DNA from: Ostreococcus lucimarinus
Taxonomy: Eukaryota
Direction: 5' to 3' (one strand)
Assembly: GCA_000092065.1 (NCBI GenBank)
Contig: CP000590.1
DNA length: 64,000 bases
The notes under the pieces: generated by a model
What the model saw: the letters and a program-made list of their open reading frames with translations, nothing else
Told to the model about the DNA's origin: nothing
Database searches by the model: none
Shown here: positions 6,008-48,781 of the stretch, piece after piece
Layout of the letters: each line of letters starts with the position of its first letter
How positions within the stretch are numbered: the first letter of the stretch is position 1
Position numbers and translations under genes: made by a program

Positions 6008-7045
6008 TTAAATCGACCACTCGGCGGTCTTCTTGAACTGTCCCGCGAAGGCGTCGAGCCAACGCGCGGCGTCGGCTTCGTCGACGACGCGTCTGTCGAC
6101 GCTCACCGTCGCCGTCATCGTCTGTACGGTTGACGGTTGGCCTTCGACCAAGACGACGCGATCCTTCCCGGCACCGATGGCTAAGATGGCACCTTGCGGC
6201 GGGTTCAAGATTGCCGAAAACGCGTCGACGCCGAACATGCCGAGATTCGACACGGAGAAGGAACCGCCCATAAACTCGTGCGGCTTCAACGCGCCCTCGC
6301 GCGCCTTCTTCGCCAATCCCTTCACGTCCGCCCCGATCTCCGTCAGCGTCTTCTCATCCGCTCGCGTGACGATCGGCGTGATGAGCCCATCGTCTGTGGC
6401 CACCGCCACGCACACGTCCACGCTCTCGTACGCCCGCCTTCCGCCCGTCGCATCGTCCCATCCCGCGTTCAACTCCGGCACCTCCCTCAACGCCCGTCCC
6501 ACCGCGTACATCACGCAATCGTTCACGCTCACCTTCACCCCACTCGCGTCCATCACCCGTCTCCTCAGCGCCGCGACCTCGCTCAGATCGACGTCCGCGC
6601 TCGCGTACGCGTGCGGCGTCCTCGTCTTGCTCTCCGTCAACCGACTCGCGATCGTCCGTCGCATCTTCGTCGTCGCCGCGTCCTCCGCGCGCTGTCCTCG
6701 CGCCAGCCCGTACTCGTAGTCCTCCAGCAGCGTTTTCGGCCGCTCGTCCCTCGCGATCGCCGGCGGTCGCAGTCCTAATTTTTCCAGCGTCGCCGCGTCG
6801 ACGGCGCCGACGCGCCGCAGGACGTCCGCCGCGATCAGATGCCCCCCCGGTCCGCTCCCCGGCACCAGCGTCTCCGGGTCCACGCCGTGCTCCTCGCACA
6901 GGCGACGAACGCTGGGCCAGAGCTTCAGCGCCCCGATCGCGCGCGTCGCGTGCGCGCGCCGCGCCGCGCGGTCGAGAGATCTTTCGAGATTTCGCGAAAT
7001 TCTCTTCGTCGCGATTCCGACGACGCGCGCCGTCGCGCGACGCAT
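6008..7045 (-). CDS. 2-oxo-acid dehydrogenase E2-like protein: E3-binding domain plus acyltransferase domain, no lipoyl domain, catalytic His replaced
   Basis: C-terminal 230 aa match the 2-oxoacid dehydrogenase acyltransferase catalytic domain. Upstream is a peripheral-subunit-binding domain (PSVRRLCEEHGVDPETLVPGSGPGGHLIAADV). The active-site motif DHRxxDG reads DRRVVDE. ORF runs to 7570 but is Arg-rich before M at about 7045. No lipoyl motif (ETDKA) found in any frame nearby. Confidence 0.7.
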   Translation of the reverse strand: MRRATARVVGIATKRISRNLERSLDRAARRAHATRAIGALKLWPSVRRLCEEHGVDPETLVPGSGPGGHLIAADVLRRVGAVDAATLEKLGLRPPAIARDERPKTLLEDYEYGLARGQRAEDAATTKMRRTIASRLTESKTRTPHAYASADVDLSEVAALRRRVMDASGVKVSVNDCVMYAVGRALREVPELNAGWDDATGGRRAYESVDVCVAVATDDGLITPIVTRADEKTLTEIGADVKGLAKKAREGALKPHEFMGGSFSVSNLGMFGVDAFSAILNPPQGAILAIGAGKDRVVLVEGQPSTVQTMTATVSVDRRVVDEADAARWLDAFAGQFKKTAEWSI

Positions 7046-31189: not shown

Positions 31190-31779
31190 CGCGACTCGCG
31201 CGCGACGCTCGACGCCTCGAAACGCTCGACGCTCGACGCGCGTCCTCGCGCGTCGTCCGTCGTCGTCGCGTCGCGTCGGAATCTGCCGCCGCGCGCGTCG
31301 TCGCGTCGTCGACTCGACGTCGTCGACGTCCCGCCGCGCCGGTTCGACTCCGCCGACGTCGCGACGTCGCGGTCGGCGCGACCCCGACGCGCGCGCGCCG
31401 ACCCGACGGCGCGATCGCGCGAGTCACGATTCGTCGCGCGCGTCGTTTTTTTTTTTCTCGCCGGCGTCGCGTCCCGCCGCGCCGCGCGATCGGTCGACGC
31501 CCCGGCGACGGGTCGCGCGACAAAGCGTCGCGAAGCGTCGCGACCGCCGACGCTTCGCGTCGCTTTGACCTCGTATGGGCAAACAGTCACACGCGTGTGT
31601 CGACCGCGCGTCCGACGCGCGTCGGCGCCGCACACCGCGACGCTCGGTCGCGAGCGCGCGCGCGTCGACCTCCGGACGCGAGCGAACGCGCTCGAGCGCG
31701 CGGCGCGTCGAGCGACGCGAGGGCGCGTCGAGCGACGCGAGGACGCGGCGCGAGGGATCGCGGGACGACGACGACGACG
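31190..31779. promoter_or_regulatory. divergent (bidirectional) intergenic/promoter region between NIA (-) and NII (+)
   Basis: 590 bp between the two start codons. Contains a T13 run (about 31425-31440) and the 16-mer cgtatgggcaaacagt (31573-31588), which recurs in the cyt-b5/NR2 divergent region. Confidence 0.6.
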
Positions 31780-34755
31780 ATGGACGCGGCGCGAGGGACG
31801 GCGACGACGGCGACGACGGTGAGGCGCGCGGTGCGGGCGCGCGGAGGACGCGCGGTGCGCGAGACGCGCGGCGCGCGGGCGCGGGACGCGCGACGAGGGA
31901 CGCCGCGGGCGGTGGTGGAGCCGGAGGGGGCGTCGGCGGGCGACGCGTCGGCGTCGGCGTCGGCGGGCGACGCGTTGAAGTGGCAGGCCGAGGACGCGGC
32001 GAGCCTGAGGGCGCATAACGAGGAAGCGATCGCGAAATATGCAAACTTTCCGGAGTTGGATAAGCCGGACGCGCACGTGGCGCGAGATGCGGATGGGTAC
32101 TACGTCGTGAAGGAGGAGTGGCGAAAACCGACGAATCCCTTTGAAAAGTTGAAGCTCGCGAAGGATCCGATGCGAGAGTTGATCGGGATGAACGGGATCG
32201 AGGAGATGGCCAAGGCGAGCGCGGCGGATTTCAAGGCTTGGGACGAGGCGTTGAATGACCCGGACGAGACCGATCAACGACCGAAGTGGGCGGGTTTGTT
32301 TCATCGACGCAAAGGACACTACGGGCGATACATGATGCGACTCAAGCTTCCGAACGGACTCATTAACTCGACGCAGATGCGATATTTGGCGAGCGTGATT
32401 AAAAAGTACGGCGAAGATGGGTGCTGCGACATCACGACGAGACAAAACATTCAGCTTCGTGGGGTTGAGTTGAAGGATGCGCCCGAAATCTTGCGCAAAC
32501 TCGAAGAGCTCGGTATGTGCTCGTTGCAAAGCGGGTTGGACAACGTGCGCAACGCGACGGGGAACCCGCTCGCGGGTTTTGATCCGCAAGAAATCGTCGA
32601 CACGCGACCTTACACGCTCGCCATTCAAGATTACGTCACCGGTGGTGGGCGCGGGAATCCAGCCATCGCTAACTTGGGGCGTAAGTGGAACGTGTGCGTC
32701 GTCGGCAGCAGCGACTTTTTCGAGCATCCGGACATCAACGACTTGGCCTTCATTCCAGCGATGAAGGATGGCAAGTTCGGATTCAACATGATCGTCGGTG
32801 GCTTCATATCTTCTCAGCGCGCAGCGGAGTCGGTCTCTCTCGATGCGTGGATCCCTGAGAACGAGCTTGTCGCCGCGACGCACGCCGTGTTGACGACGTT
32901 TCGCGATTACGGCCATCGCGGCAACCGCCAAAAGTGCCGCATGATGTGGCTCATCGACGAGATGGGTTTGGAAACGTTTCGCACCGAAGTTGCGTCGCGC
33001 ATGCCAACGGGAGACTTGGCGCGCGGCGCCGAAGTGGATCTCATCGACCGAGAGTCTCCGCGACGCAGTTACATCGGCGTGCACGCGCAAAAGCAAGAGG
33101 GCTTGAGCTGGGTCGCCGCTGCCGTGCCGGGCGGACGTATGCAACCGGAAGATCTCGCGGAGATGGCTGATCTCGCGGACAAGTACGGCGAAGGTGAGAT
33201 TCGACTCACCGTCGAGCAAAACTTTATCATTCCCCACGTGCCGAACGATAAGATTGACGCCATTCTCCAAGAGCGTTTGTTTCAAGAGTACACGCCGTTC
33301 CCGGGCAAACTTGTGTCCAACATGGTGGCGTGCACCGGAAATCAGTTCTGCGGATTCGCGCAAATCGAGACGAAGCGACAAGCGCTCGAAATGGCGGAAC
33401 ACTTGGAAAGTTGCTTAGAACTTTCGAAGGACGTGCGCATGATTTGGACAGGTTGCCCGAACTCTTGCGCTCCGGTGCAAGTGGCGGACATTGGCCTCAT
33501 GGGCGCGCAGGTGAAGAATCCGACGGGCGAGAAGGGCATGGTACCAGGGGTGAACATCTTCATCGGTGGTACCGTCGGGCCGAACGGCCACTTGAAGGAA
33601 GCGCCAGAAATCGCAAAGGTCCCGTGCTCAGAGTTGAAGCCGGTTCTGGAACAGATTATGATTGAGAGGTTTGGCGCGACGCGCAAGGCGACGCCGACGC
33701 CGAATCCGGGGCGAGCGTCGCGCTGGAAAATCAACAAATCTGCGCAGTATACCAAGGGTGTCCCTAAAGCCATGGGTAAGGCGACGCACATTTGCACCGG
33801 ATGTGGTTACATTTATCAAGAGACGAAGAAGTTCGACGAGTTGCCGGATGACTACGTCTGTCCGTCGTGCAGCGCGCCGAAGTCCAAGTTTGAAGCGATG
33901 AAGCAGGAAGAGACGCCCACGAGCGCTCGCCCGGTCGTGGAGTACCCCGAAGGCACGCTCGCGACGCTGAAGAACGGCGAAACCGTTGAATTGAAGCTCG
34001 TTGAGAAGGAACAAGTGACGTCGAACACTGTACGCCTTCGATTTGAACTCCCGTCGCCGGAGCACATCCTCGGACTTCCCGTCGGGCAACACGTGACGGT
34101 GACCATCGACGGCGTGTCTCGTCCGTACACTCCGATCACGCGCGATGCGGACAAGGGTTTCATGGACCTTCTCGTGAAGATTTATGATCAAGGCGCGCTC
34201 ACGCAAAAGCTCAACGCCGTGGCCGTGGGATCTACCGTAGCGTTCGAAGGACCGAATGGGTTGGTGACGTACAGCGCTCGCGGCGAATTTTCTACGCGCA
34301 ATCCGGCGACGGGCTCTGTGGCGAAGAAATCATGCAAGAACATCGCCATGATCGCCGGTGGTACTGGCATCACCCCTATGCTTCAAGTCATTCGCCAAAT
34401 CTTCAACGATGTCGGGGACACGACGCGGGTCAACTTGTTATTCGCCAACGTCTCCTCGGCGGATATTCTCTTGAAGAAGGAGCTCGACGAGCTCGCGAGC
34501 GCGCACAAAAACTTGACGGTGCACTACGCGATCGACAAGGATGAACCAAACTGGAACGGCGAGGTTGGATACGTTTCAGAGGAAATGATCAAGAAGTGCG
34601 ACTTGCTGAAGCGAGGTGGCTTGATGGACAAATTGTTTTCATCCGCCGACGACACCGCGGTCCTCGTGTGCGGCCCGCCGGCGATGGTTGAGAAAGCCGT
34701 TGTGCCCGCGTTGGACGCACTGAATGTCTCTACAGATTCTCGAATTTTCTTTTAA
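31780..34755 (+). CDS. NII: ferredoxin-type nitrite reductase (siroheme/4Fe-4S) fused to a rubredoxin-like domain and a C-terminal cytochrome-b5-reductase-type FAD/NAD(P)H domain
   Basis: NiR/SiR core (nitrite/sulfite reductase 4Fe-4S domain and ferredoxin-like half-domains). Then CTGCGYIY...CPSC (rubredoxin CxxC pairs). Then RPYTPI, GGTGITPM, CGPPAM (FNR/CBR fold). ORF opens at 31597; ATG (MDAARGT..., transit peptide) at 31780. Confidence 0.9.
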   Translation: MDAARGTATTATTVRRAVRARGGRAVRETRGARARDARRGTPRAVVEPEGASAGDASASASAGDALKWQAEDAASLRAHNEEAIAKYANFPELDKPDAHVARDADGYYVVKEEWRKPTNPFEKLKLAKDPMRELIGMNGIEEMAKASAADFKAWDEALNDPDETDQRPKWAGLFHRRKGHYGRYMMRLKLPNGLINSTQMRYLASVIKKYGEDGCCDITTRQNIQLRGVELKDAPEILRKLEELGMCSLQSGLDNVRNATGNPLAGFDPQEIVDTRPYTLAIQDYVTGGGRGNPAIANLGRKWNVCVVGSSDFFEHPDINDLAFIPAMKDGKFGFNMIVGGFISSQRAAESVSLDAWIPENELVAATHAVLTTFRDYGHRGNRQKCRMMWLIDEMGLETFRTEVASRMPTGDLARGAEVDLIDRESPRRSYIGVHAQKQEGLSWVAAAVPGGRMQPEDLAEMADLADKYGEGEIRLTVEQNFIIPHVPNDKIDAILQERLFQEYTPFPGKLVSNMVACTGNQFCGFAQIETKRQALEMAEHLESCLELSKDVRMIWTGCPNSCAPVQVADIGLMGAQVKNPTGEKGMVPGVNIFIGGTVGPNGHLKEAPEIAKVPCSELKPVLEQIMIERFGATRKATPTPNPGRASRWKINKSAQYTKGVPKAMGKATHICTGCGYIYQETKKFDELPDDYVCPSCSAPKSKFEAMKQEETPTSARPVVEYPEGTLATLKNGETVELKLVEKEQVTSNTVRLRFELPSPEHILGLPVGQHVTVTIDGVSRPYTPITRDADKGFMDLLVKIYDQGALTQKLNAVAVGSTVAFEGPNGLVTYSARGEFSTRNPATGSVAKKSCKNIAMIAGGTGITPMLQVIRQIFNDVGDTTRVNLLFANVSSADILLKKELDELASAHKNLTVHYAIDKDEPNWNGEVGYVSEEMIKKCDLLKRGGLMDKLFSSADDTAVLVCGPPAMVEKAVVPALDALNVSTDSRIFF

Positions 34756-35877: not shown

Positions 35878-36524
35878 CGTCGTTCGTGCGTCGTTCGCGC
35901 GTCGTCGTCGTCGTCGCGGGCGCGTCGAGGAGTGTCGACATCGGCGCGACGCGCGGCGTTTCGGGACGCCAAGCGTCGCCAAAGGGCGACCGTTGGTGAC
36001 CCTTCGTTCCAAGCGTCACACGGCTAAACATCGTTTATATACGCGCGTCGACCCGGTTTATTTTATTAACTATTACGCGTACGCGTGTAAGTTGTATTTT
36101 TACCTTGAATACGTAAAAACACGATGAGGGTTTCGTGAATGTTTTATGCGTCGTCGCGACGGGACGCGACGCGGTGCGACGCCGCGCGTCACTCCACAGC
36201 GCGTCAGCGAGCACGCCGCGACCTCGAATCGCGACAGCGCACGCGCGAAATGGCGATCACTAAAGAATTCAATGTCCCCGTGGACAGGTGCGTGTGGTTC
36301 GAGGCGCGCGCGAACGTGGGGGGGGGTTAAAGCGACGACGATGCGTCGCGGTTGTGTCGAAACGACGTGGTCGAATCGAGCGCGTGTGCGGTCGCGCGCG
36401 ATGGCGACGCGGCGCTCGAACGCGTCGATAACGATGAAAGATATATTTGTTTATGCTTTCATGCCCGCGAGACTGACGTGTAACGCGCGGTGCCGTCGTA
36501 CGTGGCCACAGCGAGCACAAGGCG
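35878..36524. promoter_or_regulatory. divergent intergenic/promoter region between NAR2 (-) and NRT2 (+) with an AT-rich island
   Basis: 647 bp. Positions about 36040-36140 are strongly AT-rich in an otherwise roughly 67% GC context (tttatatacgcgcg, ttttattaactattacgcgtacgcgtgtaagttgtatttttacc), a TATA-like core promoter candidate. Confidence 0.5.
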
Positions 36525-37958
36525 ATGAAGCTGAACGTCTTCAGCTTTGATCGCCCGCACCACTTGTCCTTCCACATGTCCTGGTTGGGTTTCTTCATCT
36601 CTTTCGTCTCGACGTTCGCGGCGGCGCCGATGATTCCGGTGATTCGTGAAGACTTGGGTCTCACGAAGCCGCAGCTCGGGAACGCTGGTTTGGCGGCGGT
36701 GACGGGTACTATTATTTGCCGCGTGCTGATGGGTACGGTGTGCGACCTCATCGGCCCGCGACTCGGTTTGTCGGTTATTCTTTTGGCCACCGCGCCCTTC
36801 TGCTTCGCCATGGCCATGGTGCAAGGCTTCGAAGGTTTCCTGATCTGCCGTTTGGGCATCGGTCTGGGTCTCGCCACGTTCGTGGCGTGCCAGTTCTGGA
36901 TGTCTTGCATGTTCAACAGCAAGTGCGTCGGTCTCGCCAACGCGACCGCCGCGGGCTGGGGTAACTTGGGCGGCGGAGTCACGCAATTCTTGATGCCGGG
37001 CATCTACGCCATCTGCTACTCGGCGACCAACAGCCGTGCGTTCACTGCCTGGCGTTGGGCGTACATCTTCCCGGGCATGTGCCACACCGTAGTCGGTTTG
37101 ATGGTCATGTACCTCGGCCAAGATTTGCCGGATGGTAACTACAAGGTGCTCACGACTTCGGGCGCGCTCGAAAAGAAGTCCTCCATGAAGGTCAACTTGA
37201 TCGGCATGAAGAACTACCGCATGTGGTGCATGGTCGCCACCTACGGTTTCTGCTTCGGCGTTGAACTCACGATGAACAACATCGTCGCCGGTTACCTCTT
37301 TGATCAATTCGGCGTCTCCCTCTCTGTCGCAGGCGTGTTGGCGTCTTGCTACGGTATGATGAACTTGTTCGCCCGCTCCGTGGGTGGCATCATCTCTGAC
37401 TGGTCTTCTAACCGCTTCGGTATGCGAGGACGTCTTTGGACTTTGTGGTCCACCCAAACGCTCGAAGGTGTGCTGTGCATCTTCATGGGTCTCTCCAAGG
37501 ACAACTTGGGCGCCACCATCGCGTTCATGGTGTTCTTCTCCATTTGCGTGCAGGCGTCCGAAGGCGCTTCTTACGGTATCGTGCCGTTCATCTCCCGCCG
37601 CGCTCTCGGTGTCGTCTCTGGTTTCATCGGTGCTGGCGGTAACGCTGGTGCCACCATCGCCACCGCCGCCTTCTTCACCAAGGATTCCATTGAGACGTAC
37701 GAAGGTCTCCAGTACCTCGGTTACACCGTCATCGGCGTCACCGCTTTGGTCATCCCGATTCACTTCCCAATGTGGGGCTCCATGTTCTTCCCGGCATCCA
37801 AAACGGCCACGGAAGAGGACTACTACATTCACAACGAGTTCACTCCGGAAGAAATCAAAGCTGGTCTCGCCGCTCCGGTCCAAAAGTTCTGCAACAACTC
37901 TCGCAACGAGCGCCCGGTTTGGAAGCGCGAGCAAGATGCGGTTGAAGCCTCCGCGTAA
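36525..37958 (+). CDS. NRT2: high-affinity nitrate transporter NRT2 (NNP family of MFS)
   Basis: 477 aa with 12 TM helices. NNP signatures FHMSWLGFFISFVSTFAAAPMIPVIREDLGLTK and GNAGLAAVTGTI, and a second NNP motif in the C-terminal half. ATG at 36525. Confidence 0.9.
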   Translation: MKLNVFSFDRPHHLSFHMSWLGFFISFVSTFAAAPMIPVIREDLGLTKPQLGNAGLAAVTGTIICRVLMGTVCDLIGPRLGLSVILLATAPFCFAMAMVQGFEGFLICRLGIGLGLATFVACQFWMSCMFNSKCVGLANATAAGWGNLGGGVTQFLMPGIYAICYSATNSRAFTAWRWAYIFPGMCHTVVGLMVMYLGQDLPDGNYKVLTTSGALEKKSSMKVNLIGMKNYRMWCMVATYGFCFGVELTMNNIVAGYLFDQFGVSLSVAGVLASCYGMMNLFARSVGGIISDWSSNRFGMRGRLWTLWSTQTLEGVLCIFMGLSKDNLGATIAFMVFFSICVQASEGASYGIVPFISRRALGVVSGFIGAGGNAGATIATAAFFTKDSIETYEGLQYLGYTVIGVTALVIPIHFPMWGSMFFPASKTATEEDYYIHNEFTPEEIKAGLAAPVQKFCNNSRNERPVWKREQDAVEASA

Positions 37959-38122: not shown

Positions 38123-39550
38123 CTATCGCTGCCCGCCTTCGGCGGACGGTCCCACTTCGAGTCTACGCTGCACCTCCATCAATATGTGCGTCCCGATCCC
38201 CGCGGCGAAACCAATCGCCGTACTCTTAGTCGCGATCGTCACCGCAGCGGTCACCATGACGAGATACTTCTGGTGCTGATGCCATCCGGGTTTCGTCTTC
38301 AAGCCCATGCCAATGAGCTCCAAACTCGACGAAAATAACATGACTCCTAATATAGTCTTCGGAAAGTGCTCCAAGAGCTTCGTTAATGAGCTCCCGAATA
38401 ATAAACCGAGGGCAAGCTTGCACAAGCCGAGGAACACGATCGATCCTCCGCCGCGAGCACCGAAAGCGTACTGAGCCGCTAAACCGCCAGCGCCGTGGCA
38501 CGACGGCATCGCGCCTACCCAACACCCGACGATATTCATCATCCCCACGCTCGTCGCCACTGAGCTCGGCGACGCGGGAAAATCAGGAAACAATTCTTTG
38601 CTCAGTGCACACACGGAGATCACTGAATTTAACGTCGTCAATGGAAGTTGCGGGACGCCGGCGTTTACGATGCCGCGCTTTGCCTCGGACCACGACGCGC
38701 TCAAAATCTTTGGCGTGGCTGGTCCAAACTTCAATCCGCTCAGCGCGCCATCTTTCGTCATGGCCATGGTGATACCGAGCACAACGAGAATAAGCGCCAT
38801 GGGAATGTAGTGACGCATGCGTTTCCGACGTTCGCCATCCGCCTCAAGTTCGCCTCGCTCGTCGCGAATTGCCGGATACTCGGGCGAGCACACATACATG
38901 ACCGCACACATGGCCACGATGGTGACCAGTAGGCCATCCGTGCCAAACATCCCTCGCACCACACTAGCATCGCTCGACGTGTACACCGCGAGTAAAAACC
39001 CTTTCCTGGCGAGCAACAATCCAAGTCCCACTTGCATGCCTTGCACAACCGCGAGCGGCGTCACTTTATTAAACGTGTCCATCAATCTCGTCGTTCCAAG
39101 CACCAACACGATGGAAGACACGAACAAACCGGCGACCATAATTTCGTTGACATTCAACGGCGACTCTCCCAACGCCACCGCCGCGATCGTCTTCATCGGC
39201 TGCACGGGCATGGGTATCTCGTACAGAAACGCCGTGAGCACGTTGTACAATCCCGTGAACACGATTGTCGTCCCCGCGTCCACGCCACACTCGATCGACA
39301 TCCCGACGAGCAGCGGTAAAAAAGTCCCGAGATCTCCAAGCGCGCCGCTCGCCTCTCGCCAACCGAACTCGCGCCAAAACTTTTCCGCGCGCGCGCCGAC
39401 GACCGCCGCCGTCCCGCCGACGCGCCCTCTCGTCGCGCGCAGCTCCGACGCCGTCGTCTCGCCGCGCTTCTCGCGCGCGCCCGCGTCCACGACGCGAGCG
39501 TCATCATCGTCGTCCGCGATGCGAATCTCGTACTCACCCGCGGACGTCAT
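38123..39550 (-). CDS. MOT1: molybdate transporter MOT1 family
   Basis: MOT1 signature motifs PMPVQPMK and FGAMPSCHGAGGLAAQYAFGARGG. Sulfate-permease-like TM core. ATG at 39548-39550. Confidence 0.85.
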   Translation of the reverse strand: MTSAGEYEIRIADDDDDARVVDAGAREKRGETTASELRATRGRVGGTAAVVGARAEKFWREFGWREASGALGDLGTFLPLLVGMSIECGVDAGTTIVFTGLYNVLTAFLYEIPMPVQPMKTIAAVALGESPLNVNEIMVAGLFVSSIVLVLGTTRLMDTFNKVTPLAVVQGMQVGLGLLLARKGFLLAVYTSSDASVVRGMFGTDGLLVTIVAMCAVMYVCSPEYPAIRDERGELEADGERRKRMRHYIPMALILVVLGITMAMTKDGALSGLKFGPATPKILSASWSEAKRGIVNAGVPQLPLTTLNSVISVCALSKELFPDFPASPSSVATSVGMMNIVGCWVGAMPSCHGAGGLAAQYAFGARGGGSIVFLGLCKLALGLLFGSSLTKLLEHFPKTILGVMLFSSSLELIGMGLKTKPGWHQHQKYLVMVTAAVTIATKSTAIGFAAGIGTHILMEVQRRLEVGPSAEGGQR

Positions 39551-39773
39551 CGCGCGAGGGCGTCGTGACCTTTCGCGTCCCGCGAAAAGCGCTTTTTCGC
39601 GTGGATGCTCGACCCGCGCGCGTCGCCGCGCGCGCGGATGCGCGAGGAACGCTCGAGGAGATCGTGTTTAACCCAACCCGTGCGCGTGCGCGTCGCGCGC
39701 GAGGCGTAAGCGTCGCGCGCGCTGACGTGTGTGGACGCGAAATGAGAACGTGGGGACGCGCGCGCGCGCGCGC

Positions 39774-39824
39774 GACGAAGACGAAGACGAAGACGAAGAC
39801 GAAGACGAAGACGAAGAGACGATG
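39774..39824. repeat. (GACGAA)n hexanucleotide microsatellite, about 8 units
   Basis: gacgaagacgaagacgaag... located about 220 bp upstream of the MOT1 start and downstream of the CNX2 stop. Confidence 0.9.
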
Positions 39825-39842: not shown

Positions 39843-41078
39843 CTAACCCCCTATCTTGATCATCGCGCGATTATCCTGCGCCGCGAGCTCGTGCATGCCC
39901 GCGTGCGCGGCCTTCTTTCGCTTGACCGCAGCGCCGATGACGCGCAAAATGTCGTCGTCCGACGCGCCCGAGCGCATGGCGTCTCGCAAGCTCACCTCTG
40001 AATTGCCGAATAAACAAACCTTCAAATTACCGTCCGCCATGATGCGTAAGCGGTTACATCCGCCGCAGAATGAGTTCGTCATGCTCGTGATGAAGCTCAC
40101 CGAACCTTTGTGACCGGGCAGGGTGAAGTTCTTCGCGACTTCCTCGCGCGGGTCGTCGACGCGCGTCAACGCGCCGTACGCCTCTTCTATTCTCGCGCGC
40201 ATCTCGGCGTACGACACCATCTTCTTCGTGCTCCACTTATTGCCGTCGAACGGCATGTACTCTATAAATCTCACATTAATCGGCTTGTCTTTCGTCAACG
40301 CCACGAAATCAAGCAGCTCGTCGTCGTTTTGCCCGCGCATGACGACGCAGTTCACCTTGACGCTCTGAAATCCGAGTTCGCACGCCTTGTCGACGCTCGC
40401 CAGTACCCGATCGTGCCCTTTCCTCCGCGTCATGAACTCAAACTTCGCCGGCACGAGCGTATCAAGCGACACATTCAAACGCGTCAATCCGTTCGCTCTA
40501 AGCGCGTCTAACCGCTTCGCGAGCGTCACTCCGTTCGTCGTGACGCTCGTCTCGCGCACCCCCGGCGTCCCGCTCACCCGTCGCACCACGTCTTCCAAAT
40601 CTTTTCTCAGCGTCGGCTCACCCCCGGTGAGCCGCACTTTATCCACCCCAGCCGCGGCAAATATTTTAACCACCCTCCCGATCTCATCCGCGGTGAGCAA
40701 CTCATCCTTCGCCGTCAAATCCACGCCGTCCTCGGGCATGCAATACCCGCACCGCAGGTTGCACTTTTCCGTCAAGCTGATGCGCAGGTAATTATGCCCT
40801 CGCCCGAACGCATCCACGAGTTCCGGCGCGACGTTCGCCGTTCGCGACGTCATCGCGCGCGCGGCGACTCGCGGATCGATTCGCGCCCTCGCCCGCGCGC
40901 CCTCGCCCGCGCGCGTCGGTTCCTCCACCGCTCGCCGCGGTGCACTTTTTGTCCCGAGCGCGCTCACCGCGTCCTCGCGCGCGCGTTCGACGCCCTGATC
41001 GCCGCGCGCGATCGCCGCGAGCGTCGCGCTCGCGCGCCGCGCGCCCGGGCGCGTCCACGCGCCGCGCGCGAGCGACAT
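39843..41078 (-). CDS. CNX2: GTP 3',8-cyclase (molybdenum cofactor biosynthesis protein A, CNX2/MoaA), radical SAM
   Basis: [10 protein letters not shown] radical-SAM cysteine cluster, C-terminal 4Fe-4S cysteines (CGGCNRLR), and MoaA twitch domain. ORF runs to 41324; ATG at 41076-41078 (MSLARGAW, presequence) chosen. The internal Met at about 40832 is an alternative. Confidence 0.85.
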
Positions 41079-41154
41079 CCTCTGACGTCGCTTCGCGTCG
41101 TTTCGCCCTGTCGACCGGACCGCACCGCGCGTCACTCCGTCGCGCGCGCTCGCG

Positions 41155-41937
41155 ATGTCGCGCGCGCTCGAGGACGACCACGGCTCGTTCGCCGTGATAG
41201 ATCTCGTCGCGCACCTGTACCGCGGCGGCGCGGAAGATCGAGGCGCGCTCGCGAAGATTTGGTCGCGGTACAGCGATGCGACGGTTTCAGAGCGGAAGAC
41301 GACAGGTTTCGAGATGGTGCGCATGCATCACGCGACGCTGACGAGGATGTTTCGAGACGGTGCGTGCGACACGCTCAATTTTCGCGAGCGCGACGCGCGT
41401 CGGGACCGAGGGCGCGCGGTCGAGGGACGGGACGCAAAACGGCGCGAGACGGGACGACGACGAGGACGGGCGAGCGGGACGCGACGGACCGACTGACGAC
41501 GACGACGCGTTCGAACGCGAAAAGACCCGGATGGGGATTACTTAGATATCGAAGACGTGCGCATGACGTGGGAAGAGTTCGTGGACGCGCTGAGAGACGC
41601 CACGGGGGCGTCGGCGGATGAACCGGCGTCGCCGGAGAACGCGAAGTCGTACGACGCGCTCGAACGACCGGTGATGCAAAGAAATCAATCGTTCTCGAAC
41701 TTGGCGAAGGATTTGGAGGAAGTCATCGCCGCCGCGCGCTCGCCCGGGACGAGCGCGGACAACACGCCCGAAGGTTCGACGCGTGGGATTCAGAGAATTT
41801 CATCCTCTGGGATGCTTTTGGGCATCGGCTGCTCGAGCCGCGAACCGTCGCTTCGAGGCGGCAACGCGTTTCACGCGGGCATGACCGTGCGCTCGGAAGA
41901 TTTGAAGAGTCGCCTCGAGAAGAACGCGACGCAGTGA
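41155..41937 (+). CDS. hypothetical small protein, two exons; unannotated candidate gene inside the nitrate/Moco cluster
   Basis: join(41155..41359, 41546..41937) gives a 199-aa protein: [25 protein letters not shown]...TLTRMFRD|[23 protein letters not shown].... Both ORFs are in the track as separate pieces. Joining them removes an Arg-rich tail and uses a canonical GTGCGT...ACTGAC...TTAG intron. AT-rich putative 3' UTR follows. Confidence 0.45.
41360..41545 (+). other. predicted intron (186 nt)
   Basis: Donor GTGCGT at 41360, ACTGAC at about 41490, acceptor TTAG at 41542-41545. Phase-1 junction gives GAT (Asp) and continues the downstream ORF frame exactly. Confidence 0.45.
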
Positions 41938-42070: not shown

Positions 42071-43447
42071 ATGCCCGCCGAAACCGAAACCGCGCGCAAG
42101 TACCACATCGTCGGCGACTACGCCACCGCGCTGAACCCTCGAAACGACGCGCGAAGCGTGGAAAAATACGCGCGACACTTGGTGCTGCGTCCCCACGGCG
42201 CGCGCATCCAACGCGCGCTGTGCGCCGCGCGCGTCCTCGTCGTCGGCTGCGGTGGCCTCGGGTGCCCGTGCGCGATATATCTCGCCGCCTCGGGCGTGGG
42301 AACGCTCGGATTGTGCGACGCGGACGCGGTGGAGCTGAGCAACTTGCATCGACAGGTGGGACACTCGACGGCGGCGACCGGGACGTCGAAGGCGAAGTCG
42401 TTGGCGGCGCGGTGCGAGGGATTGAACGATGGCGTTCGAGTCGTGGTGCGAGAAACGTTCGCGACGACGGAAAATGTGATGGAACTTGTGGCGGGGTACG
42501 ACTTGGTGTGCGATTGTAGCGATAATCCGAGGACGAGGTATTTGTTGTCGGACGCGTGCGCGAGCGCGGAGATTCCGCTCGTGAGCGCGGCGTGCGTGGG
42601 ATTTGAAGGGCAGCTCACGGTGCTGTGTGGCACGCGAGCGTGGAATGATGACGATGAATCGTTTGGGGAGTTTGCGCCCGCACCGTGTTATCGATGTTTG
42701 TTTCCGACGCCGCCGGCGTCGGGAGACGCCGGGACGTGCGGGGCGTCTGGCGTGCTCGGACCGCTGCCTGGCATCGTGGGTACTTTTCAAGCGCTCGAGG
42801 CCATGAAAACGCTGGCTGGGGTAGGGGAGTCCATGCGAGGAAAAATGTTAACGTTCGACGCGTTGAGCGCGAGACCGACGATGACGTTGAACATGCGGGA
42901 ACAGCGAGACGCCGCGTGCGCGTGTTGCTCGACGTTGACGTCTCACGACGGACGCTTCGACGTCGCGACGTACGATTACGACGCTTTCTTATCGTCGACG
43001 CCGTGTCCGATGCGCGGAAGAAAAGCGAGACGCGGTGGCGTTGATGTGAACGCGCCGCCGAAGTTTGGGGCGCGAGAAATGCCGGAGCGCGGCGGCGGCG
43101 GCTGGCGACGCGTGGATGCGAAAGCGGCGACGACGTACGTCAAAGATGAGGGCGTCACCGTAGTCGACGTGCGTCCCAAGCACATGTACGACGCAGCGCA
43201 CATACCTGGATCTATTTCGTTACCAATAGAAACGCTCGACGTCGAGACGTGGAACGGCGCCGTGGGCGCGGCGGTTGAAGGATACCGTCTGTGCTTCGTG
43301 TGCGCGGGAGGCAACAACAGCCAAAGAGCGGCGCAATGGTTCGTGGACGCGAAAGTCGCCACCGCTGCCCCGGCGAGCGTCGTCGACGTTTGTGGCGGTC
43401 TCGCCGCGATGCGCGACGCGGGCTACGACGTCCCGAGACTCGATTGA
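42071..43447 (+). CDS. CNX5: adenylyltransferase and sulfurtransferase MOCS3/CNX5 (MoeB/ThiF E1-like domain + rhodanese domain)
   Basis: E1-like nucleotide-binding VLVVGCGGLGCPCAIYLAASGVGTLGLCDADAVELSNLHRQ, CxxC zinc motif, C-terminal rhodanese with active-site CFVCAGGNNSQRA. 458 aa. Confidence 0.9.
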   Translation: MPAETETARKYHIVGDYATALNPRNDARSVEKYARHLVLRPHGARIQRALCAARVLVVGCGGLGCPCAIYLAASGVGTLGLCDADAVELSNLHRQVGHSTAATGTSKAKSLAARCEGLNDGVRVVVRETFATTENVMELVAGYDLVCDCSDNPRTRYLLSDACASAEIPLVSAACVGFEGQLTVLCGTRAWNDDDESFGEFAPAPCYRCLFPTPPASGDAGTCGASGVLGPLPGIVGTFQALEAMKTLAGVGESMRGKMLTFDALSARPTMTLNMREQRDAACACCSTLTSHDGRFDVATYDYDAFLSSTPCPMRGRKARRGGVDVNAPPKFGAREMPERGGGGWRRVDAKAATTYVKDEGVTVVDVRPKHMYDAAHIPGSISLPIETLDVETWNGAVGAAVEGYRLCFVCAGGNNSQRAAQWFVDAKVATAAPASVVDVCGGLAAMRDAGYDVPRLD

Positions 43448-43655: not shown

Positions 43656-44339
43656 TCAGAACTTTGTAGTAATTCGAAAAGTCGCGGCGACGATCGCCCC
43701 ACCCACGATTCGCCGCCACCACCGTCCACGCCGCGGCTTCTCGCCCTTATCCGACGCGGCGTCGCGCGTCGAGAGCGCGACCTCCGCGACGACGTCCTCT
43801 TCCGACCGCCCCTGCGGGCATCCGTTCGCCTCGAGATATCGCAACACGCCCTCGCTCGCGCCGCCCGCGTACTTGACCCAAAAGTCTCTGTCTTTCGCCA
43901 ACCACGCCGGCACCGGCGACGCGCGCGTCGTCGTCTCGCGCTCCGTCTCCGCCTCCGTCTCCGCCTCCGCCTCCGCCTCCGCCTCCGCGTCGCCCTCGCG
44001 CGTCACCACCCCGATCTGAAAATCTCTCAGCTGCGTCCACGCCCGCGCGCTGTGAATCTCCTCGAACTCATCGCTCGCCTCTTTCCCGAGCGCCCGCGCG
44101 ATCGCCAGCGCCGTCGACACCTGCCCCGCGTTGTTGAATCCCGGGTGCGTCGTCGCGAACGCCGTGATGTCGAACACGCGCTCGCGCACCACGATCCATC
44201 CGTCCGCGAGGCGCGCGTGCGCCGCGACGTCCTCGCGCGTGTACTTTCGCCACCTCGCGCGCTCGTCGTCCGTCGGCGCGCGCCGGAGCGCGTCGACGAC
44301 GGCGAGGTCGACGGCGACGTCGCGCCCGGACGCGTGCAT
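43656..44339 (-). CDS. cytochrome b5-domain protein with nitrate-reductase-type heme domain and a short hydrophobic C-terminal tail (possible tail anchor)
   Basis: Heme domain YTREDVAAHARLADGWIVVRERVFDITAFATTHPGF...EIHSARAWTQLRDFQIGVV parallels the NIA cyt b5 domain ([38 protein letters not shown]...[19 protein letters not shown]). (AE)n linker. C-terminal RWWRRIVGGAIVAATFRITTKF. ATG at 44337-44339. The ORF upstream of it overlaps NR2 exon 1 and is discounted. Confidence 0.65.
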   Translation of the reverse strand: MHASGRDVAVDLAVVDALRRAPTDDERARWRKYTREDVAAHARLADGWIVVRERVFDITAFATTHPGFNNAGQVSTALAIARALGKEASDEFEEIHSARAWTQLRDFQIGVVTREGDAEAEAEAEAETEAETERETTTRASPVPAWLAKDRDFWVKYAGGASEGVLRYLEANGCPQGRSEEDVVAEVALSTRDAASDKGEKPRRGRWWRRIVGGAIVAATFRITTKF

Positions 44340-44658
44340 CGTCGCGCCGTTCGAGCGCGGACGACCGGACGCGTCGTCGGCGGCGCGCGGACGCGCGGCC
44401 GCGCGCGCGCGGACGCGTCGCGCGTCGCGCGCGCGCGTCGCGCGTCGCGTCGTGGCGCGACGACGTCGACGGGCGCGAAGCGTCACTTTGGTAAAAAAGG
44501 AAAAAATGCGTATGGGCAAACAGTATGACGCTTCGGCGACGCTTGGAGATTCCGAAACGACTCGGTCGACGGCTGGCGTCGACGCGACGCGACGCGCACA
44601 ACGCGGCCCTCGCGCGGTCGACGCGGCGTCGCGAGACTCGAAGCGTCGTCGTCGAGTC
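44340..44658. promoter_or_regulatory. divergent intergenic/promoter region between the cyt b5 gene (-) and NR2 (+)
   Basis: 319 bp with an A-rich stretch (ggtaaaaaaggaaaaaatg) and the 16-mer cgtatgggcaaacagt (44509-44524), also found in the NIA/NII divergent region. Confidence 0.55.
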
Positions 44659-46324
44659 ATGGCGAACGCCGTCGTCGCGATCGTCGCCGCGGGCGCGGGC
44701 GCGTTCGCGGGCAAGCTGCTCGACGGGAAAAAGCGCGAGACGTCGCGAGGCGCGGACGACGCGGACGACGTCGACTTTAAGACGGACGCGAAGTCCAACG
44801 TCGATCACGCGGCGGCGGCGAAAAAGCATCAGTACCTGGCGCAGAAGTACCCGGAGGTGGACGAGCGAGACTTGAAGACGCCGGATAATTGGGTGAAGAG
44901 GCATCCGTGCGTGCGAGACGCGAGGCGACGCGAACGCGGGACGACGAGGACGCGGCGAACGACGACGGCGCGCGTGACTGACGGTGGTTTGCGTCGATCG
45001 TGGTGATAGGAATTTGATTCGTCTGACCGGGAAACACCCGTTTAACGTCGAGGCGTCGCTTCCGGAGTTGTATGATTACGGATTCATCTCGCCGGTGAAC
45101 TTGCACATCGTGCGGAATCACGGCGCGGTGCCGAAGTGCGATTGGGACACGCACAAGATTAACATTTGTGGCAACGTCCCGAAACCGTTCGAGATCGGTA
45201 TGGACGAGTTGGTGAAAATGCCGAGCGACACGTTCCCGTGCTTGGTGGTGTGCGCGGGGAACCGTCGGAAGGAACAAAACTTGGTCAAGTCGTCGATTGG
45301 GTTCTCGTGGGGGCCGTGCGCCATCGGAAACACGTACTGGACGGGCGTACCGCTGCGAGTGTTGCTCAACAGAGCGGGCATTCATAAGCCCGGTCCGGGT
45401 GCGCGATACGTGTGCTTGGCTGGTCCGCAAAACGAATTGCCGAAGGACTACCCCGATCAAGACGGTGGTCCGGGATCGTACGGCACATCCATCGACATGG
45501 AAACCGCGCTCGATCCGACGTGCGATGTCATTGTGGCGTACGAACAAAACGGTGCCAAGCTTCACCCAGACCATGGATTCCCAGTGCGGGTGATCATTCC
45601 CGGTTACATCGGTGGGCGCATGATAAAGTTTTTGAAGGAGATTAAAGTCACCGACAGAGAGTCAAACAACTTTTATCACTTCAACGATAACCGCGTGTTA
45701 CCGCCGCCAGTTGACGCTGAGCGCGCGACCGAGGAGGGATGGTGGTTCAAGCCCGAGTTCATCATCAACCAACTCAACATTAACGGTGCCATCGCGTACC
45801 CGGCGCCCGAAGAAGTCATTCCCAAGTCGCAAAAGACGTACGCCTTCAAAGGTTACGCCTACTCTGGCGGCGGTCGCAAGGTCATTCGCGCCGAGCTTTC
45901 CTTCGATCAAGGCTTGAGCTGGGAATTGAGTGATATTCACACTCGCGAAGAACCGCGATGGGCCGATTTCAGCTCCGGTGACAAGGCCAGGCACTGGTGC
46001 TGGTGCATGTGGACTCTCGAAGTGCCGATTGAGAAGCTCCTCGACAAAAAGTGCGTCGAAGTGTGCTTCCGCGCCGTCGATCAATCCATGAACAAAATGG
46101 ACGAGCGCCCGACGTGGAACGTCATGGGTATGTTGAACAACCCGTGGTACCGCGTCCGCATCCACCACACGCCCACGGGCGACGTTCGCGTGGAGCATCC
46201 GTGCATCGCCGGTCCGACCCCCGGCGGCTGGATGCAAAAGATGGCGGCTAAGGAACCCACCGGAGAACTTCTCTGGGGCTGGGGCGGCCAAGGCACGCCG
46301 GCCGCGCCCCCGAGAGAAGAATAA
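44659..46324 (+). CDS. nitrate-reductase-like molybdopterin oxidoreductase (Moco + dimerisation domains only), two exons, N-terminal hydrophobic segment
   Basis: join(44659..44906, 45010..46324), 520 aa. Exon 1 MANAVVAIVAAGAGAFAGKLL...KTPDNWVKRHP is spliced to NLIRLTGKHPFN..., which aligns residue-for-residue with the NIA N-terminus ([23 protein letters not shown]). [10 protein letters not shown] and [17 protein letters not shown] conserved. Ends at the position of NR hinge 1; no cyt b5 or FAD domain. An in-frame upstream ATG at 44506 (MRMGKQ...) is an alternative start. Confidence 0.8.
44907..45009 (+). other. intron (103 nt) of the NR-like Moco gene
   Basis: Donor GTGCGT at 44907, GACTGAC at about 44975, acceptor GATAG at 45009. 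The splice joins two track ORFs (44131..45006 and 44984..46324) into a continuous NR-homologous sequence. Confidence 0.8.
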
Positions 46325-46485
46325 ATTATTCGTGATGTTTTTCGATTTATTATGACCTCGTGTAAGATTATCACCATCATTCCTTAAGTCTCTCTCTCTT
46401 CGCCGTCGACGCTCGGCGTCGACGCTCGCGCGCCTCACACGCAGCCTCGCGTCCGACTTCGCTTCATCCCACGACCGCGCGCGCG

Positions 46486-46767
46486 ATGGATCTCATATTC
46501 ATCCTCCGTCAATACATCGGCATCGTCCTCTCCATGGCCGCCTTCGCCGGCTTCGCCTTCTGCACCAAACTCGAGCGACGCTTCGACCTCGACCAAACCA
46601 AAATCATTCACGTCTCCGTCGGTCTCGCCGTCGTCGGCCTGCTGTTCCACGAACTGCGCCCGTACAAGCGACAGGCTGGATTGACGTTTAGCAAAGAGCA
46701 GGCCGAGGAGGAGTGGAAGGCGCGCGAGGAGGAGATCGCCGCGGCGAAGACGAAGAAGAAAAAGTAA
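46486..46767 (+). CDS. small two-TM membrane protein with Lys/Glu-rich C-terminus (hypothetical)
   Basis: 93 aa with ATG at 46486. Two hydrophobic helices (IGIVLSMAAFAGFAF; IIHVSVGLAVVGLLF). Non-biased composition. Followed by a TGTAA-containing 3' region. Confidence 0.45.
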   Translation: MDLIFILRQYIGIVLSMAAFAGFAFCTKLERRFDLDQTKIIHVSVGLAVVGLLFHELRPYKRQAGLTFSKEQAEEEWKAREEEIAAAKTKKKK

Positions 46768-46987
46768 CTTTTCGACGGCGCGCGCGGGACGCGTCGAGTT
46801 CGCCGCTCGAGCGGCGCGGCGCGGCGTCGCGACGCGCGTAGGTTGTAATTCGATTAGCGTCGCGCTCGCGCGCCGCGCGTCCGTCCGCGTCGTCGTCGAC
46901 GGCGTCCGCGAGGCTTCGGGCGCGACGTCGACCCCGCGCCAAGGGACACGAAGAGGCGCGAGGAGACGGCACTCCGCGCCGCGACGC

Positions 46988-48781
46988 ATGGGATGCGCCG
47001 CGTCCTCCGCGAGCGCGTCCGCGCCCGCGAGCGCGCTCGCGCTCGTCGACTTCAACGCGCGATTCGCGGACGAGTACGTCGTGCGGGAGAAAATCGGCGT
47101 CGGACAGCAAGGGACGGTGTACCTGTGCGAGGACGCGGAGACCGGGACGACGCGCGCGATGAAGGAGACGCACATCGGGGTGTTCGGCGCGAACGCGAAG
47201 CGACGAGAGGCGTACTGCGAGATTGAATTGCTGTCGCAGATGCGACATCCGAACGTGGTGAGGATGGTGAAGGCGTACCAGACGAGCGCGGAGGTGCAGG
47301 TGGTCATGGAACACGCCGGGCGAGACACGTTGTTGACGTACCTCGTCGCTCTGGACGACGCCGAGGGGATGACGGAGGAAGAAAAGATGCACATTAAACA
47401 TGAATTGATTCGGCAGTTGGTGGACGCGGTCGCGCACGTGCACTCGAGGGATGTGGTGTTTCGGGATTTGAAGCACGAAAACGTCATGGTCACGAGCGAC
47501 GACGATTTGAGAAACGCGCAGATTAAGCTCGTTGATTTCGGTCGCGCGGCGTCGCTGCGCCGGGAAGATCGACTGAATAATCAGCCACCTCTCGGGACGT
47601 CGTTATTTCAAGCGCCCGAAGTAGAAGAGCGTCGAGAGTATGGACAAGCGGCGGATATGTGGGCCGTCGGCGTCTTCGTTTACTTTTTAGTCACGGGGCA
47701 GATGCCGTTCGAGCACACCGTGGCGGGGCTTTACAAGGTGCTGCGAGGAGAATATGAACCCATGGAAGAGTCAATAAATAAGCACGCGCGCAATTTGGTG
47801 GCTAAGCTTCTCGTGCTCGACCCGGCGAAACGAATCAACGCTGCTCAAGCGAGCACGCATCGATTCTTGCGGCAGAGAAACGCCGCGCACGTGCACGTCG
47901 GCGAGGGCGACGCGCTCAGAGTGCCGAAACACATGGAAAAAGCGGCAAAGAGACAACTCCGAGCGCTCGTGATGCAGGACAGTCTGGAGCTGCACACGGT
48001 GGGATTGCTCGCGGAGAAGCTCACGCCCGAGGATTTGAAGACGCTTCGGCGTTGGTTACGCATGAAGGCGGAAATGTCTGTGCGCGGAGGAGTGGCGAAC
48101 GCGCGCGAAAAAAATGCATCTCATAGTATCTCTCAGCGACAGTCTCCGGATGCTTCAATCCGAGCGGGTCACACGTACACCGACGAACTCCAGGCACACG
48201 TGGCGCTCAACGCGTTGTACAATGAAATGACGAAGGATCAAGGGAGTGAGTCCAACAGTAGAGAAGTGAGCTTCCATGGCGGCGCACTTACGAAAACGCA
48301 GTCGTACCAGAAGCTCACGGAAGCACTGGAAAATTTAGAAGAAATGAGTTCTGGTGACGAAGCCGATGTGCACAGGCCGTCTCCGCCAAAGAAGATTAGC
48401 AAAAGCTCGCTGAGCGACGCCGCGCGGCAAGAGTCCGCACAAAAGACTACTGGCACGAGTGATATCGCTACAAGCCGCAGTTTCGTCGGCTACGCGCATC
48501 AGAGCGGAATGTGTACGGTGGATGAGCTCATCACTGCTTGCATTAGCGCTGGCCTTCAATCCGTGGCGGACGAGTTGCAAACCGTTCGCGACGATTTGAA
48601 AAAAGAACGCTTGGCGAAGCTCGCGGCGACGGGCGCGGATACGCAGACGCAGAACGAGAGCGTCCTTCTCGACATCATGCTCTTCAGATACGAAGACTTA
48701 CTTGCGAAGGTCGAGAACGCGCACTTAGACCAAGTAAAGGACTGGTCAGTTCGAGCGGGAGTGATGGAGAACGGGCTGTAG
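46988..48781 (+). CDS. serine/threonine protein kinase (CAMK-like) with N-terminal MGCAAS myristoylation/palmitoylation motif
   Basis: Kinase subdomains: GVGQQGTVYLCED, AMKE, HRDLKHENVMV, DFG, APE. About 300-aa C-terminal non-catalytic extension. ATG at 46988. Confidence 0.85.
   Translation: MGCAASSASASAPASALALVDFNARFADEYVVREKIGVGQQGTVYLCEDAETGTTRAMKETHIGVFGANAKRREAYCEIELLSQMRHPNVVRMVKAYQTSAEVQVVMEHAGRDTLLTYLVALDDAEGMTEEEKMHIKHELIRQLVDAVAHVHSRDVVFRDLKHENVMVTSDDDLRNAQIKLVDFGRAASLRREDRLNNQPPLGTSLFQAPEVEERREYGQAADMWAVGVFVYFLVTGQMPFEHTVAGLYKVLRGEYEPMEESINKHARNLVAKLLVLDPAKRINAAQASTHRFLRQRNAAHVHVGEGDALRVPKHMEKAAKRQLRALVMQDSLELHTVGLLAEKLTPEDLKTLRRWLRMKAEMSVRGGVANAREKNASHSISQRQSPDASIRAGHTYTDELQAHVALNALYNEMTKDQGSESNSREVSFHGGALTKTQSYQKLTEALENLEEMSSGDEADVHRPSPPKKISKSSLSDAARQESAQKTTGTSDIATSRSFVGYAHQSGMCTVDELITACISAGLQSVADELQTVRDDLKKERLAKLAATGADTQTQNESVLLDIMLFRYEDLLAKVENAHLDQVKDWSVRAGVMENGL

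Follow-up and report, generated by a model that had tools for sequence, protein, structure and literature searches.

A spliced gene of a Mamiellophyceae-only family between CNX2 and CNX5 of Ostreococcus lucimarinus, with a proposed phospho-switched product

A 64,000 nt window of Ostreococcus lucimarinus DNA (contig CP000590.1 of GCA_000092065.1; coordinates below are positions in this window) carries, between the molybdenum cofactor (Moco) genes CNX2 and CNX5, two plus-strand open reading frames (ORFs) of 113 aa (41155..41496, starting with ATG) and 126 aa (41557..41937, starting with GTG). Judged by conservation in related genomes, these two ORFs are one real, spliced and independent protein-coding gene. 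Its corrected product of 205 aa (~22.5 kDa, calculated pI ~5.1) belongs to a family seen only in Mamiellophyceae, for which we propose a role as phospho-switched regulator or adaptor. We give this explanation as a whole a probability of about 0.7.

A first-pass annotation of the sequence had already joined the two ORFs by removing a 186 nt intron, which gave 199 codons. Both ORFs were found where it had placed them and share one frame, and the signals it had named, a GTGCGT donor, an ACTGAC branch-like motif and a TTAG acceptor, are all present. Its two-exon structure and its donor were retained, but its acceptor lies 21 nt too far 3' of the true AG at 41523-41524. Removal of 41360-41545 does give 198 aa plus a stop, but deletes the seven conserved residues DPDGDYL, which are encoded in frame just 5' of that acceptor. 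In O. tauri, Micromonas, Bathycoccus and Mantoniella the homologues run through this place without interruption as (M/V)(F/L)RD-DPDG(D/E)xLD(I/L)(D/E), the dash marking the junction. Of these seven residues, G72 and L75 never vary in the family, and conservation reaches 90% or more at D69, P70 and D71. Since only the AG at 41523-41524 restores DPDGDYL, we assigned the acceptor to this site, 28 nt downstream of the branch A. The Arg-rich tail of the upstream ORF, which the first-pass annotation had regarded as an artefact, is indeed read-through into the intron. Exon 1 of the corrected model encodes the first three predicted helices of an N-terminal domain, and exon 2 continues through a linker and a helix with the phospho-motif to the conserved Ser/Gly/Arg tail and a helix at the C-terminus.

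The donor motif recurs in the window, where GGTGCGTG was counted 9 times compared to 3.5 expected from shuffles. In two other candidates of the pattern GGTGCGTG...GACTGAC...AG the spacing from branch to AG is likewise 28-35 nt. One of these candidate introns (36288-36511, plus strand) immediately precedes the NRT2 ORF, and the other (35724-35502, minus strand) falls in the NAR2 region; in O. tauri the NAR2 gene spans 782 nt for 193 aa, which implies an intron there too. It is conservation rather than the splice motifs that takes the corrected model beyond chance.

The intron was surveyed in 78 metagenome loci and other contigs from relatives, compared with the window. At the same phase-1 position, a GT..AG intron of 281-336 nt was present in every Bathycoccus contig, and one of 87-194 nt in at least nine other Ostreococcus lineages. 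Overall, the lengths of 87-336 nt fall into all three classes modulo 3, and the exons often lie in different frames, therefore splicing is required to keep the frame. The AG equivalent to 41523-41524 is kept in all intron-bearing lineages, and CTGAC is kept 20-35 nt 5' of it in most. Apart from the window, just its two nearest relatives have the TTAG proposed earlier; most Ostreococcus lineages use CTC, CTG or TTG for this Leu. Micromonas is without an intron here, and so is O. tauri, whose gene (L009, 8001-8615) translates directly into a 204 aa protein that reads LRD-DPCGEFLDIDD across the equivalent of the junction.

Substitution patterns separate exons from intron. Compared to relatives, the ratio of nonsynonymous to synonymous substitution rates (dN/dS) of the coding sequence was 0.08-0.61. 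Insertions and deletions were absent from exon 1, including in the comparison with the closest distinct lineage (L062), and few in exon 2, compared to about 16 blocks in the 165 nt of the intron. On these comparisons the coding sequence is under purifying selection. Transcription of the locus was shown by an MMETSP transcript ORF from O. 'lucimarinus' (P0197, 124 aa) identical to the exon-2 ORF at 123 of 124 positions; it covers exon 2 only, so the exon junction lies outside it. Where the intron is a multiple of 3 without a stop, models in public collections and a transcriptome peptide run through it as 'proteins' of 237-245 aa (P0004, P0005 and P0111; loci L048 and L049), P0111 being from Ostreococcus sp. 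RCC789 (MMETSP0932). Genuine retention of the intron, or pre-mRNA among the assembled sequences, may account for these read-through models. In non-pusilla Micromonas (P0147; L052-type loci, ORF 6084-6830) the conserved N-terminal segment stands apart from the KY(S/T)..ERK segment, which suggests a separate upstream intron in this clade.

Searching 5.8 billion proteins yielded 51 matches. Among them were full-length orthologues of O. tauri type, Bathycoccus and M. pusilla type with E values of 1e-50 to 1e-72 and 94-99% query coverage, such as O. tauri OUS43407.1 (204 aa), Micromonas pusilla CCMP1545 XP_003057944.1 and a Bathycoccus prasinos protein of 202 aa. Mantoniella beaufortii contributed a complete transcript ORF of the family. 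A profile search of 1.84 billion representative proteins gave 41 matches, and all identifiable ones were from Mamiellophyceae with one exception; this outlier, P0148, is a WD40/STAND protein and was discarded as spurious. Identity to family members ranged from 44 to 65%, and an alignment of the window protein with nine homologues contained 43 invariant columns. All motifs of the family, (A)VIDLVAHLY, GFExVR..H..L.R, DPDG..LD..D and (I/V)SS.G.L...G..SR..S.R.G, are present in the 205 aa product.

The earlier statement that the protein matches no recognised family was confirmed as far as Pfam is concerned: none of these ten proteins was assigned to a Pfam family, with scattered single matches only at E values up to 5. 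Likewise, the family profile found nothing below E 0.16 among PDB sequences, and PDB fold searches gave no match. The same statement did not hold for the databases, where the family is already catalogued as hypothetical proteins that are uncharacterised and, in the collections searched, seen only in Mamiellophyceae. Annotated orthologues exist in O. tauri (ostta10g00980, CEF99316.1, OUS43407.1), M. pusilla (MICPUCDRAFT_67708) and Bathycoccus. For O. lucimarinus itself the protein collection held no accession for the gene, though neighbouring XP_0014201xx entries are there, and its only entries were prokaryote-style half-ORFs of 113 and 124 aa. It is thus plausible that the gene is missing from the O. 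lucimarinus annotation, as had been supposed. In the literature we found a single mention of M. pusilla 67708, as one of three 'intervening' genes (McDonald et al. 2010, PMC2944026), and the orthologue does not appear in published accounts of the O. tauri cluster.

The closest described counterpart is O. tauri ostta10g00980 (CEF99316.1; RCC1115 allele OUS43407.1 / BE221DRAFT_194832), annotated as 'unnamed product' or 'hypothetical protein', with 68% identity in the best tblastn segment; an O. tauri-type protein (P0002) showed 65% over the whole-protein alignment. This orthologue has the same position between CNX2 and CNX5 and the same motifs, including all phosphorylated serines, but has lost the intron, and the neighbouring sulfite-oxidase-like (SO-like) molybdoenzyme gene, which O. 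tauri has lost, is lacking. M. pusilla CCMP1545 MICPUCDRAFT_67708 (XP_003057944.1, UniProt C1MRK5) is ~51-54% identical and of full length, with its annotated model extended at the N-terminus. The gene lies within a nitrogen island beside the orthologous CAMK-like kinase, SO-like and cytochrome b5 (cyt-b5) genes, but it has no intron at this position, and its immediate neighbours are the kinase and SO-like genes rather than CNX2 and CNX5. The 202 aa 'unnamed product' of Bathycoccus prasinos (P0008, GCA_964199575.1; 55-58% identity) shares the phase-1 intron position, and its annotated splice joins MFRD-DPDGECL exactly as in the corrected model. Here the differences are the length (281-336 nt) and AT-richness of the intron and the location of the gene among RPL14, BORCS8-like, pyruvate kinase and other unrelated genes.

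For the protein architecture, AlphaFold2 (AF2) was run with the Bathycoccus orthologue P0008 as query in place of the window protein, whose exon translations were included as additional rows of the alignment. The model was all-helical over residues 14-139 and without strands, with a predicted local distance difference test (pLDDT) score mostly of ~80-92 that dips near residues 101-110, followed by a tail of pLDDT <50 and a short C-terminal helix. The family protein thus probably consists of an all-helical N-terminal domain of ~130 residues and a conserved Ser/Gly/Arg-rich tail that is predicted to be disordered. Residues 119-128 match a SnRK/AMPK/CDPK-type phosphorylation consensus. Here S124 and F125 never vary across the family, and all ten aligned members conform to this SnRK-type pattern.

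Proteome, phosphoproteome and diel mRNA data were all taken from O. tauri. The orthologue was placed as ostta10g00980 by gene numbering (NR 00920, NiR 00930, NAR2 00940, NRT2 00950), and peptide sequences confirmed this assignment. It was detected with 7 peptides, together with rhythmic phosphopeptides (Noordally et al. 2023, PMC10540734 supplements), and with 8 peptides in an independent proteome (PMC7407893). The phosphopeptide RNEpSFNQLAR (site probability 1.0 in MaxQuant) peaks at zeitgeber time (ZT) 4 and has its trough at ZT20, with a fold change of 3.4 (PMC10540734 Table S2). Its RNxSF serine corresponds to the invariant S124. A 20-letter tail peptide peaks at ZT8 with a trough at ZT20, both with three phosphates (fold change 3.1) and with two (3.3), and a 25-letter phosphopeptide peaks at ZT0 with a trough at ZT8 (fold change 5.3; all PMC10540734). 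Sites 2, 14 and 18 of the triply phosphorylated tail peptide correspond to the family-invariant S161, S173 and S177. Among ZT4-8 sites in general, SnRK-like hydrophobic residues at -5 and +4 are enriched (PMC10540734 main text).

Under long days, ostta10g00910 to ostta10g01000, which comprise NAR1, NR, NiR, NAR2, NRT2, MOT1, CNX2, ostta10g00980, CNX5 and cyt-b5, all fall into the set peaking at ZT0, and the nearby kinase 01020 peaks at ZT20 (PMC12216367 Table S2). Since this ZT0 set is large, the shared phase of any one gene counts for little.

The family is present in Ostreococcus, Micromonas, Bathycoccus and Mantoniella, and the gene order was compared in the first three of these genera. Every Ostreococcus lineage sampled shows NRT2-MOT1-CNX2-X-CNX5-cytb5-(SO-like)-kinase, with X being the candidate gene. 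M. pusilla-type contigs show NRT2-NR-...-kinase(-)/X(+)/SO-like(-)/cytb5(+), with X within 5 kb of NR. Neither in Bathycoccus nor in Micromonas is the candidate gene linked to CNX2 or CNX5. Co-location with nitrate/Moco genes holds in all Ostreococcus lineages sampled and in M. pusilla-type contigs, and not in Bathycoccus and the other Micromonas. Because of the gene orders in Ostreococcus and M. pusilla, the steadiest neighbourhood is formed not by CNX2 and CNX5 but by the block of kinase, SO-like and cyt-b5 genes. This block (43656-48781) is kept beside the candidate gene in Ostreococcus and M. pusilla-type contigs (L002-L004, L010, L048).

Since no catalytic family or fold was recognised, we propose that the product is a regulatory or adaptor protein and not an enzyme. 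Day-active basophilic kinases of SnRK/CAMK type would probably modify M-x-R-x-x-S124-x-x-x-L and the RISSS...SREPS tail, and thereby change the partners of the protein. The hint at such kinases is circumstantial, namely the CAMK-like neighbour kinase and the SnRK-like enrichment at ZT4-8. The 76 bp spacer shared with CNX2, presumed to be a bidirectional promoter, would give the gene the dawn expression of the cluster. No conserved cis-element was found in this divergent promoter across nine Ostreococcus lineages, and the TGACGT of the window is not kept. The explanation is weakest where it places the target in nitrate or Moco metabolism, a link that is plausible but less likely than not. In its most specific form, that of a phosphorylation-switched regulator, peculiar to Mamiellophyceae, of nitrate assimilation or of the maturation of molybdoenzymes, made at dawn from the CNX2 promoter and phosphorylated by day at the SnRK/AMPK-type site and on the tail, which couples energy and diel status to NR, to SO-like/cyt-b5 or to Moco supply, the proposal is unlikely.

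In plants, hinge 1 of nitrate reductase (NR) is phosphorylated by SnRK1/CDPK and then bound by 14-3-3 proteins. The analogy to the candidate protein is only functional: the same kinase pattern (hydrophobic at -5, basic at -3, Ser, hydrophobic at +4) occurs in a protein encoded in a nitrate cluster, with diel phosphorylation in the O. tauri orthologue. The candidate protein differs in that it is not homologous to NR and does not have the Pro at +2 of a 14-3-3 mode-1 site. Moco carrier and binding proteins (MCP of Chlamydomonas, MoBP of plants) are small, soluble and handle Moco, and would be the kind of 'assembly factor' that had been suggested. In contrast to them, the candidate protein and its nine homologues have no Pfam match and a predicted all-helical domain without strands; this candidate identity was rejected for lack of similarity. 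MCP has been reported only in Volvocales (PMC4620153).

Several observations weigh against the explanation as a whole. At the transcript level, P0197, with exon 2 only, and P0111, which reads through the intron, look intron-retaining or 5'-truncated. Only one of five AF2 models was confident (mean pLDDT 69.5, compared to 48 or less), and it was of the Bathycoccus protein. Two-thirds of O. tauri phosphoproteins are rhythmic (PMC10540734 abstract), and the ZT0 list makes up about a quarter of the long-day sheet text, as estimated from sheet sizes. In Bathycoccus and the non-pusilla Micromonas clades the gene lies among unrelated genes. Moreover, abundance of the O. tauri protein did not change significantly upon N, P and N+P deprivation (p 0.16-0.47, maximum fold change 1.56 or less), in the same four-condition experiments in which NAR2, NRT2 and NR fell (PMC7407893). 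The link to nitrate and Moco is weakened because linkage is lost in two lineages, the ZT0 set is large, diel phosphorylation is general and there is no response to N starvation. The cluster-associated function suggested by the first-pass annotation thus retains the position in Ostreococcus and M. pusilla and the dawn co-phasing in O. tauri in its favour, and has the loss of linkage elsewhere and the missing response to N deprivation against it.

The same evidence bears on the possibility that the gene is real and that its place in the island reflects inherited synteny and a shared promoter, with a function apart from N and Mo metabolism, such as a signalling or structural role peculiar to the lineage. 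To this reading we give an even chance. Mamiellales genomes are extremely compact and neighbours often share promoters, in line with the 76 bp spacer; absence of linkage to any N or Mo gene in Bathycoccus and non-pusilla Micromonas, the unchanged O. tauri protein under N, P and N+P deprivation and the treatment of 67708 as merely 'intervening' by McDonald et al. (2010) point in the same direction. What such a reading has to accommodate is that the gene has kept its place next to nitrate/Moco genes in two genera with clusters rearranged in other respects, and that the O. tauri orthologue is co-phased at ZT0 with all nine cluster neighbours. A resemblance of the D-x-D-G loop to calcium sensors was also considered. 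With a predicted helix on either side and W-E-E-F after it, the acidic loop superficially looks like an EF-hand, and the helix-loop-helix around it would then be the Ca2+-binding element. Yet the canonical 1-3-5-6(G)-8-12(E) arrangement failed in every register, at Gly6 and at position 3 or 5; Pfam EF-hand models did not match any of the 10 family members at E values up to 5, and no EF-hand fold match was obtained. We consider an EF-hand-type sensor highly improbable.

At the level of the gene model, the 186 nt intron with its acceptor at 41545 might instead define the main isoform or a significant alternative one. TTAG is a legal acceptor 21 nt downstream and keeps the frame, but its use deletes DPDGDYL, which the intronless O. 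tauri gene encodes. It is, moreover, the second AG past the branch point and absent from most Ostreococcus lineages, which makes this isoform very unlikely. Finally, the region might be no independent gene at all, consisting of chance ORFs, a 5' exon or 5' untranslated region of CNX5, or an antisense transcript of CNX2. Overlapping long ORFs, on opposite strands or in alternative frames, are found all over this window of 62% G+C, and the CNX2 ORF on the minus strand extends mechanically to 41324, over exon 1. The conserved CNX2 start is at 41078, and the 411 aa form beginning there is the one in public collections and most assemblies. Against the absence of a gene stand the full-length orthologues with E values of 1e-50 to 1e-72, dN/dS below 1, the separation from CNX2 and CNX5 in other genera, a stop of its own 133 nt before the CNX5 ATG and the O. 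tauri peptides in two proteomes. Its probability is close to nil, and the earlier placement of an independent gene between CNX2 and CNX5 is upheld.

The surroundings of the candidate gene form a compact eukaryotic gene island, as assigned with Pfam (table). The MOT1 product of the window is residue-identical to O. lucimarinus CCE9901 XP_001420100.1, therefore the window stems from the CCE9901 genome or a near-identical strain. The reference O. lucimarinus CNX2 model XP_001420101.1 has 336 aa and may be N-terminally truncated relative to the 411 aa ORF. A (GACGAA)n hexanucleotide microsatellite of ~8 units (39773-39818) lies between MOT1 and CNX2. The nitrite reductase (NiR) ORF combines a C-terminal rubredoxin-like motif with FAD/NAD(P)-binding reductase domains; this reductase part is the 'Cytb5R' of published cluster maps. 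Within the cyt-b5 ORF lie the (Ala-Glu)/(Thr-Glu) repeat EAEAEAEAETEAETE and, N-terminally, a long stretch rich in Arg and Ala, part of which is possibly non-coding. The SO-like Mo enzyme is heme-less, and the pairing of a Mo-domain protein with a separate cyt-b5 gene resembles a split NR or SO.

Table. Coordinates of the candidate gene, its predicted elements and its neighbours in the window
Feature	Position	Strand	Remarks
Candidate gene	41155-41937	+	Two ORFs joined by splicing
Exon 1	41155..41359	+	68 codons and first base of codon 69; start and sequence align with Ostreococcus, Micromonas and Bathycoccus orthologues
Phase-1 spliceosomal GT..AG intron	41360..41524	+	165 nt; position conserved in orthologues; in-frame TGA 41494-41496
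Donor GTGCGT	41360..41365	+	Read directly; GTGCGT, GTACG[CT], GTATGT or GTAAGT in relatives
Branch-point-like ACTGAC	41492..41497	+	Read directly; branch A 41496
Acceptor AG, GCGAAAAG/AC	41523..41524	+	First AG past branch A; needed for conserved D-P-D-G-D-Y-L
Acceptor TTAG of the first-pass annotation	41542-41545 (AG 41544..41545)	+	Rejected as main site; within Tyr-Leu-Asp codons
Exon 2	41525..41937	+	Includes TGA stop 41935-41937
SnRK/AMPK/CDPK-type consensus, M-Q-R-N-Q-S124-F-S-N-L	41674..41703	+	Residues 119-128; hydrophobic -5, Arg -3, Ser, hydrophobic +4
Multi-phosphosite tail	41794..41862	+	Residues 159-181, predicted disordered; S161, S173, S177 invariant
Divergent intergenic region shared by CNX2 and candidate gene	41079-41154		76 bp; CNX2 ATG 41078 (-), candidate ATG 41155
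NR	28286-31189	-	Pfam
NiR-reductase fusion	31597-34755	+	Pfam
NRT2	36525-37958	+	Pfam
MOT1	38123-39550	-	Pfam
CNX2, MoaA-type radical-SAM enzyme	39843-41078	-	Pfam Radical_SAM and Mob_synth_C
CNX5	42071-43447	+	Separate gene; Pfam ThiF and rhodanese
Cyt-b5 protein	43656-44798	-	Pfam
SO-like Mo enzyme	44984-46324	+	Pfam
CAMK-like kinase	46988-48781	+	Best PDB matches CASK, DAPK, CDPK

The corrected model repairs a gene apparently missing from the O. lucimarinus annotation and explains its mis-calling elsewhere, where metagenomes show two half-ORFs or read-through proteins. It adds a tenth, uncharacterised member to the Ostreococcus nitrate/Moco cluster, which is usually listed as NAR1-NIA-NII-(Cytb5R)-NAR2-NRT2-MOT1-CNX2-CNX5, and ties this gene to existing proteome and phosphoproteome data of O. 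tauri. If the product does not regulate nitrate or Mo metabolism, the gene is one more conserved orphan. If it does, it would be a lineage-specific control point in some of the most abundant picoeukaryotes of the ocean and, in the most specific form of the proposal, a lineage-specific counterpart of the SnRK1/14-3-3 control of plant nitrate reductase.

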